Source of the DNA: a virus | Lineage: Duplodnaviria; Heunggongvirae; Uroviricota; Caudoviricetes | Virus record (IMG/VR): IMGVR_UViG_2713896901_000003 | Location: 1-9,599 of that record | Length of the DNA stretch: 9,599 bases | Reading direction: 5' to 3' (one strand) | Shown: piece by piece, positions 4,345 to 4,673 of the stretch | How positions within the stretch are numbered: the first letter of the stretch is position 1 | How the letters are laid out: each line of letters starts with the position of its first letter | Program-made: the position numbers and the translations under genes | The notes under the pieces: model-generated | Database searches by the model: none | What the model was told of the DNA's origin: nothing | The model's input: the letters and a program-made list of their open reading frames with translations, nothing else

Positions 4345-4641
4345 ATGGAATTTCTGATAGTTTTTGTTGTTGTTTTGGTCATCATTCTTTTTGTTTTGCT
4401 AAGCATTAGCAAAAAGCTATCTCAAATGATTGAACATAGCTCTAATCGCGCAAAAGAAGAAGACCATCTAATTGATATAAAAGAGATTCTCTCTGATATA
4501 AAAATCACATTAGATGAAATAAAATACACAACAGATCTAATTGAACAGTATAAAATACCAACCCCAAACGAAAGAAAAGCAATAGATCAATATCGTATTG
4601 ACTTAGAAATCGACGAAATGCTAAGCAAAAGAAAAGACTAA
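4345..4641 (+). CDS. Small single-pass membrane protein (98 aa), accessory gene downstream of cI
   Basis: GGAGG at 4336-4340 before the ATG. N-terminal hydrophobic helix EFLIVFVVVLVIILFVLLSI, then a charged, probably helical tail. Strongly AT-rich compared with cI. Sits where lambda carries rexAB. Confidence 0.75.
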   Translation: MEFLIVFVVVLVIILFVLLSISKKLSQMIEHSSNRAKEEDHLIDIKEILSDIKITLDEIKYTTDLIEQYKIPTPNERKAIDQYRIDLEIDEMLSKRKD

Positions 4642-4646
4642 AAACA

Positions 4647-4673
4647 CCCGGCCTCAGCGCCGGGTTTTCTTTT
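4647..4673 (+). terminator. Intrinsic terminator ending the cI operon
   Basis: Stem CCCGGC (4647-4652) / GCCGGG (4659-4664) with a 6-nt loop, followed by TTTTCTTTT. Confidence 0.8.

Follow-up and report, generated by a model that had tools for sequence, protein, structure and literature searches.

What does a lambdoid prophage gain from a small membrane-protein gene that stands directly behind its cI repressor? The question is raised by a 9,599-nt stretch of DNA (positions 1 to 9,599 of the IMG/VR record IMGVR_UViG_2713896901_000003, hereafter the window), which is the early/immunity region of a lambdoid Escherichia coli prophage. Between the cI gene and the leftward operator and promoter (OL/PL), the window carries a gene for a protein of 98 amino acids (aa), here called orf98. 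An earlier reading, made from the sequence alone, had noted this AT-rich gene in the place that holds rexAB in lambda and proposed that it encodes a novel membrane-acting exclusion or abortive-infection factor. The analysis reported here confirms the observation and partly supports the interpretation. The features on which the argument rests are the following, with coordinates referring to the window.

4345–4641, + strand: orf98, 98 aa plus stop, ATG start (open reading frame (ORF) list, phrog_18389 match, ratio of non-synonymous to synonymous substitution rates (dN/dS), intact copies)
4336–4341, + strand: Shine-Dalgarno sequence GGAGGG, 3 nt 5' of the ATG (read from the sequence)
4646–4673, + strand: intrinsic terminator, the equivalent of lambda tIMM, with stem ACCCGGC/GCCGGGT, a 6-nt loop and then TTTTCTTTT
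4335–4668, + strand: putative mobile cassette that comprises the ribosome-binding site, the ORF and the terminator hairpin, with no recognisable promoter (delimited by homology to the Citrobacter prophage L037)
4351–4407, + strand: predicted transmembrane (TM) helix, residues 3–21 (FLIVFVVVLVIILFVLLSI; hydropathy, charge pattern, AlphaFold2)
4507–4623, + strand: conserved core, residues 55–93, predicted to be cytoplasmic (end of the stalk helix, YKIPTP turn, C-terminal helix)

The pattern of substitutions marks orf98 as a real gene under purifying selection. Between orf98 and its Citrobacter copies (74–76% aa identity), dN/dS was 0.17–0.19 at a dS of 0.7–0.8, and all 32 E. coli-type copies that were fetched proved intact. 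Among these 32 copies there are 10 synonymous polymorphisms and 12 non-synonymous ones, mostly conservative, corresponding to a polymorphism ratio (pN/pS) of roughly 0.3 over roughly 61 synonymous and 233 non-synonymous sites. Furthermore, residues Y69, P72, D81 and E88 do not vary among 17 sequences with 23–74% identity to the window protein.

The position of the gene is strictly kept. The order cI, homologue, terminator (where present) and OL/N was found in nine of nine lambdoid loci, namely the window and loci L033, L034, L035, L037, L039, L043, L045 and L048, with the homologue directly 3' of cI each time, at distances of 1–54 nt. The nine cI proteins are 18–64% identical to one another and the orf98 homologues 28–96%, and the two identities are uncorrelated across the 36 locus pairs (Spearman rho −0.01); a role as partner of one specific cI was rejected on this ground. 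Cro type, N type and replication genes vary among the loci as well. In the Citrobacter prophage L037, whose cI is 23% identical to that of the window, nucleotide homology is found only at 4335–4668 (80.5% over 334 nt), and this confinement sets off the ribosome-binding site, the ORF and the terminator as one discrete unit. The separate acquisition that had been suspected from base composition is supported by these comparisons, which present orf98 as an apparently promoterless cassette that moves between immunity modules and always lands in the cI operon.

The signals around the gene agree with such a cassette. The start codon lies 40 nt past the cI stop (4304) behind the gene's own Shine-Dalgarno sequence, and 4 nt past the orf98 stop begins the terminator hairpin (4646–4665), a 7-bp stem with six G-C pairs and a predicted energy of −13.7 kcal/mol. 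Both signals had been recognised from the sequence before, although the hairpin is modest when compared with shuffled sequence (z = −1.8). A hairpin followed by a T-run stands 3' of the homologue in six of the nine related loci, including L033, L035, L037, L039 and L043, and one stem pair is compensatory between the window and L033 (CCCGGC/GCCGGG versus ACCGGC/GCCGGT). The marked AT-richness that had been pointed out also holds: GC content is 30.0% in orf98 (26% at third codon positions), compared with 42.7% in cI (37% at third positions) and 45% in the window, and the homologue is AT-richer than the neighbouring cI in eight of eight cases examined. The only candidate for a promoter specific to orf98, TTGGCA-17-CATAGT at 4270–4298 inside cI, agrees with the consensus at 9 of 12 positions and was set aside because consensus-like sites occur at chance level (4 found, 4.3 expected). 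An Rfam scan of the region around orf98 found no RNA element there. With cI-to-homologue gaps as short as 1 nt in other loci, expression of orf98 is more likely to depend on the cI promoters than on one of its own.

The interval that orf98 occupies is a variable slot, as had been proposed. An O157:H7 prophage (L041) whose cI is 78% identical in DNA is devoid of orf98, and its homology to the window ends exactly at the cI stop and restarts at OL (4787). Stx2 phage 86, the closest relative in backbone, carries orf62-orf61-stk-orf59 between cI and N. Mosaic diversity and abortive-infection genes are recognised features of the slot downstream of cI, for which Owen et al. 2021 (PMC8585504) cite Degnan et al. 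2007, rexAB and bstA. Two side observations concern its contents. The first gene 3' of cI in Stx2 phage 86, orf62 (L036:4542–4883), which precedes stk, encodes a DUF3024 protein (E 2.1e-31). A second family of small ORFs (67–74 aa, no Pfam match), absent from the window, lies convergently between the orf98 terminator and OL at L037:5324–5530(−), L039:5324–5548(−) and L043:4733–4960(−), and also in the orf98-less O157:H7 prophage (L041:4361–4570(−)) at 37% identity; its presence in related prophages indicates that the slot between cI and OL can hold two independent small cassettes.

The protein itself follows a simple plan, in keeping with the single N-terminal TM helix and charged tail that had been read from the sequence. 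Residues 3–21 form its sole hydrophobic segment (mean Kyte-Doolittle value 3.67, compared with 0.44 for the next-best window), and the remainder is charged (14 K/R and 18 D/E), with an acidic tail of net charge −4. Across 17 family members, the residues before the TM helix comprise 0 K/R and 10 D/E and the 15 residues after it 41 K/R; by the positive-inside rule, the N-terminus is predicted to lie outside and the remaining ~75 residues in the cytoplasm. Two AlphaFold2 models agreed with each other (mean predicted local distance difference test score (pLDDT) 80, with 87–92 for the TM helix) and showed the TM helix running into a long stalk helix that reaches residue 68, followed by a YKIPT turn and a C-terminal helix (helix bounds 45–68, or 2–68, and 74–96). 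Their predicted TM-scores (pTM) were low, at 0.28–0.31, and the second run, made with a deeper alignment, returned the same elongated helix-turn-helix (pTM 0.31) with no gain in fold information. Such low values fit an elongated chain that probably needs partners. The stalk helix shows a heptad pattern of I/L residues, and the protein probably self-associates beneath the membrane. The family signature reads IKYTTD-x-IE-x-YKLP-x3-ER-x2-ID-x6-E.

With respect to family membership, the protein matches the PHROGs family phrog_18389, annotated as of unknown function, over its full length (E 1.8e-61, residues 1–98 on profile positions 1–98 of 98), as do 17 of 17 aligned homologues, and its RefSeq entry is the hypothetical protein WP_000394871.1. 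The claim of novelty is therefore to be divided: the family is already catalogued under these two identifiers, and what is new is the absence of any functional description. Profile searches and structure prediction yielded no named homologue, whether of defence or non-defence function. There was no significant match in Pfam, NCBIfam, PADLOC or the PDB sequences, and a Foldseek search of the model against PDB and BFVD gave no match. In PADLOC-DB 2.0.0, no defence model was significant; the best was ZorB/MotB (E 0.013, residues 4–55, that is, the TM helix and the part just after it), and the family members gave only scattered matches at E ≥ 2e-4. Sub-threshold Pfam, NCBIfam and PADLOC matches of the protein and 17 members (DUF5385, DUF3784, DUF4446, DUF948, MscL and ZorB/MotB) all fell on the TM helix and the adjoining helical region and were judged compositional, as were profile matches to PDB sequences of designed coiled coils and sodium-channel helices. 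A PHROGs match to the phi29 p16.7-like family (E 0.095) was not significant, and the acidic tail argues against DNA binding; the likeness to that family is one of architecture only (TM helix, coiled coil, C-terminal domain). P22 SieA, T4 Imm and Sp, SieB and holins were absent from the Pfam and PHROGs output.

Members of the family are rare. Relatives fell into 11 clusters among 5.8 billion, all named ones being from E. coli or Citrobacter, and a profile search recovered 14 representatives among 1.84 billion proteins. A tblastn search of 50,697 phage records hit a single record, in which the gene is unannotated, and a scan of genome contigs with an alignment of close relatives gave no match. 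Among 5,426 complete E. coli genomes, 98 (~2%) carry orf98 at ≥80% coverage, a number close to the 113 genomes that carry the cI type of the window (≥90% identity). Carriers include Shiga toxin-producing E. coli (STEC) strains of O26 and O111 as well as one Stx1a-converting phage.

Outside the enterobacteria, two homologues lie in what look like chromosomal integron cassette arrays. That of a Pseudomonas sp. (L053) is found within an array of at least 11 cassettes separated by 86-nt repeats, which start with (G/C)CCTAAC and end with AACGTTAG, as attC sites do; its cassette (region 3478–4451) includes a further ORF of 80 aa (3627–3869), which has a TM helix at its N-terminus. That of a Pelagicoccus sp. 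(L042, region 4921–5432) is the only ORF of at least 80 aa between two palindromic repeats of ~80 nt, in a similar array of short cassettes. The contexts of two more distant family members were uninformative. Because distant homologues sit in integron-like cassettes, the function of the family probably needs no fixed partner gene, and the protein would work on its own.

Several known systems share part of this design. HK97 gp15 is an inner-membrane exclusion protein that is made from the prophage and blocks genome entry (PMC3594210). Like orf98, it is a small prophage-borne single gene followed by a terminator, and orf98 repeats its plan, in which an acidic 'ME' N-terminus is followed by a single TM helix, a basic flank and a charged helical tail; the common layout implies the same predicted orientation. 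The two differ in that gp15 has 62 aa and belongs to the tail operon, whereas orf98 has 98 aa, an additional conserved turn-helix module and a place behind cI. Homology between them was not detected (hhalign probability 8.5% over 7 columns), and the YebO family, to which chromosomal, non-phage relatives of gp15 of unknown function belong (PMC3594210), was not among the Pfam matches of the orf98 protein. P22 SieA is likewise a prophage-expressed single-gene inner-membrane protein and suffices alone to block DNA injection (PMC10883804), but it has 162–164 aa, three predicted TM segments and another genome position, and no homology to it was found.

Other systems resemble orf98 chiefly in place. 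Lambda rexAB occupies the slot between cI and OL/PL and is closed by a terminator; its transcription with cI, for which orf98 is a likely parallel, its action at the membrane, predicted for orf98, and a base composition AT-richer than the surroundings complete the likeness (Owen et al. 2021, PMC8585504). However, Rex comprises two genes with a multi-pass RexB, whereas orf98 is a single gene with one TM helix, and neither the RexA nor the RexB family matched orf98 at E ≤ 1 in Pfam, PHROGs or PADLOC, in line with the lack of Rex homology stated from the sequence. In the phages of closest backbone, 933W and Stx2 phage 86, the cI-to-N interval is occupied by the stk cluster, which consists of wholly different genes (a kinase, DUF3024 and others) and measures ~2.1 kb as against 0.3 kb. 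The Stk kinase, a prophage product, aborts infection by HK97. BstA of Salmonella BTP1 and its relatives is, like orf98, a single gene directly 3' of cI with its own terminator; it is a defence gene, presumably expressed from the cI promoter, whose synteny is kept across diverse prophages and whose product localises to sites of phage DNA replication (PMC8585504). No sequence similarity between BstA and orf98 was found. Finally, orf98 has traits of a moron in the sense of Juhala and Hendrix: its GC content of 30% against 43–45% in its neighbours, its terminator-bounded unit and homology limited to the cassette.

What, then, does orf98 do? Judged by its position and architecture, our tentative preference is that it acts on the cytoplasmic side of the inner membrane in superinfection exclusion or abortive infection, a reading that is a serious candidate but stops somewhat short of being probable. 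We favour it because of the position, the architecture, the autonomy of the gene and the gp15-like layout, and the known defence cargo held by the slot elsewhere (stk, rexAB and bstA) counts in the same direction. According to this model, orf98 would be a self-contained accessory cassette of one gene that closes the cI transcription unit, and presumed co-transcription would yield its product in the lysogen, whenever the repressor itself is produced. The product would be a bitopic inner-membrane protein with two periplasmic residues, a TM segment at residues 3–21 and an acidic cytoplasmic domain of ~75 residues, in which an amphipathic heptad stalk helix, a YK(L/I)P turn and a C-terminal helix that folds back would follow one another. 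Its job would most likely be to protect the lysogen against heteroimmune phages from the cytoplasmic side of the inner membrane. It might do so by interfering with the completion of genome entry or with an early membrane-proximal step, comparable to HK97 gp15 and P22 SieA, or by permeabilising the membrane when infection is sensed, as an abortive-infection system comparable to Rex. The broader proposal, that orf98 is the founder of a new family of anti-phage proteins, each encoded by a single gene, which act from the cytoplasmic membrane face via a YKLP helical hairpin and spread both as a promoterless cI-operon cassette and as an integron-like cassette (Pseudomonas, Verrucomicrobia), is conceivable but rather doubtful.

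A number of points weigh against a defence function. If the conserved domain is cytoplasmic, as predicted, it has no way of blocking tail or ejection proteins on the periplasmic side. The genes of the slot are not all defence genes, the strict link with the cI operon would fit a role in lysogeny or induction equally well, and the functions found in integron cassettes are of many kinds. A defence of broad use would hardly be expected in so rare a family (14 among 1.84 billion proteins; 1 of 50,697 phage records), and no homology to a defence protein was found in PADLOC, Pfam or PHROGs. Literature searches by accession, PHROG identifier and topic returned no paper that mentions the orf98 protein.

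The alternative that survives best, although we hold it to be unlikely, is a lysogenic-conversion factor unrelated to phages, that is, a small inner-membrane regulator of host physiology that would affect, for example, envelope stress tolerance or the activity of a transporter or sensor kinase. Architecturally, orf98 is typical of small bitopic membrane proteins in general, a generally adaptive function would suit the integron-like context in environmental bacteria, and the YebO relatives of gp15 are chromosomal and non-phage (PMC3594210). Against this, every enterobacterial member whose context was examined adjoins a phage repressor, and the protein resembles no characterised small membrane regulator in Pfam or NCBIfam.

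Less probable again is a helper of lysogeny or induction, whose membrane-anchored domain would tune the prophage switch, for instance by tethering FtsH/HflKC or Clp proteases, which affect the stability of CII, CIII, O or an antitoxin, much as secondary roles are ascribed to RexA and RexB. RexB has been reported to affect ClpXP-dependent degradation, and RexA and RexB to assist the transition from lysogenic to lytic growth. Such a role is favoured by the constant placement of the family just 3' of cI, seen in each of the nine lambdoid contexts, since generic cargo would be expected in several slots, and also by the predicted cytoplasmic orientation of the domain. However, the identity of orf98 tracks neither the type of cI, Cro or N nor the replication module, the integron-like homologues of Pseudomonas and Pelagicoccus have no phage switch nearby, and the O157:H7 prophage with the closely related cI manages without orf98.

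A latent membrane toxin, holin-like or similar to a type I toxin, serving prophage retention or lysis timing, would accord with the single, very hydrophobic TM helix and a helix able to oligomerise, and the second small TM ORF of the Pseudomonas cassette could be its partner; yet the constitutive production with cI expected from its position would sit badly with a toxic product, the lambdoid loci have no antitoxin partner in common, orf98 lies outside the lysis cassette and no holin family was matched in Pfam or PHROGs, which leaves this explanation highly improbable. That orf98 is no functional gene at all but a chance ORF in AT-rich spacer DNA, as might be thought of a short, AT-rich frame that is annotated only as hypothetical and left unannotated in the sole phage record holding it, is effectively refuted by the low dN/dS and the 32 intact copies, as well as by the invariant residues, the conserved Shine-Dalgarno sequence and homologues in three phyla.

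The remaining features of the window form the surroundings of orf98.

367–1818, − strand: DnaB-type helicase
1793–2692, − strand: O-like initiator
2864–3163, − strand: cII
3261–3506, − strand: cro
3521–3585, between cro (−) and cI: rightward operator (OR) region, operators at 3522–3535, 3547–3560 and 3571–3584 (repeat search and sequence)
3597–4304, + strand: cI repressor, 235 aa (HTH_3 and Peptidase_S24)
4674–4790, + strand: C-rich, G-poor spacer of 117 nt (GC skew about −0.38; no ORF listed)
4795–4880, + strand: OL/PL, ATAAC-N4-GTTAT operators at 4795–4808, 4839–4852 and 4864–4877
5120–5326, + strand: N antiterminator, 68 aa, GTG start, arginine-rich N-terminus (PF25694, E 2.7e-16; phrog_271)

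The three 14-bp operators of OR follow the pattern ATAAC-N4-GTTAT, and the promoter PRM is presumed, by analogy with lambda, to lie in this region. The cI protein matched its two Pfam domains at E 3.5e-17 and 7.5e-07 and phrog_4 at E 1.8e-53, and is annotated in E. coli genomes as an XRE family regulator. Past the orf98 terminator, the spacer resembles Rho-utilisation sites in composition and could be a back-up Rho-dependent terminator of the cI operon, or cassette debris. The terminator precedes OL/PL, where a PL-like promoter, TTGACC-17-TATCTT at 4852–4880 (−35 TTGACC, 4852–4857; −10 TATCTT, 4875–4880), overlaps the operators; nutL, with a boxA-like GCTCTTTAACA read from the sequence at 4927–4937, and N lie downstream. 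The N gene, the far boundary of the cI-to-N slot, aligns with the N_peptide profile over its C-terminal 57 positions only, and homology to 933W-type N starts only at 5261, which makes the N of the window a mosaic; in E. coli E2865, PGAP calls the equivalent stretch an incomplete 'regulator' pseudogene. The window flanks share 97.7–98.1% identity with Stx phages of the 933W type, Stx2 phage 86 among them, and 3189–5260 (cro, cI, orf98, OL/PL and the 5' part of N) form an immunity module unlike that of these phages.

Further along the PL operon, directly 3' of N, a 207-aa protein (5388–6011, +) contains a full-length Nmad5 domain (nucleotide modification associated domain 5, PF18757, E 2.2e-70), and its gene stands in place of sequence carried by 933W-type relatives. 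Two conserved proteins of no known function follow, a 156-aa member of phrog_1636 (6075–6545, +) and a 122-aa DUF2528 protein (6696–7064, +; PF10800, E 1.5e-47). The lambda cIII thermoregulator element RF01804 (Rfam, 88.5 bits, E 4.5e-21) was detected at 7124–7182 (+), at the start of a 54-aa cIII gene (7137–7301, +), downstream of which bet and exo lie on the + strand.

Lysogens of lambdoid phages all transcribe the stretch from cI to OL, which has already yielded Rex, BstA and Stk. Cargo in this slot will not surprise a specialist. The synteny, the cassette and the integron-like spread nevertheless make orf98 a clean experimental target: its position is kept across nine unrelated immunity types, its cassette is defined to 334 bp, and integron-like copies occur in other phyla. 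These traits recommend it as a compact candidate, easy to test, for a new mechanism of exclusion at the membrane. Should it not serve defence, the strict coupling to the repressor would point instead to an unrecognised membrane-linked function in lysogeny. Given its presence in STEC O26 and O111 strains and in a Stx1a-converting phage, any effect of orf98 on phage susceptibility could matter for the ecology of Stx phages.
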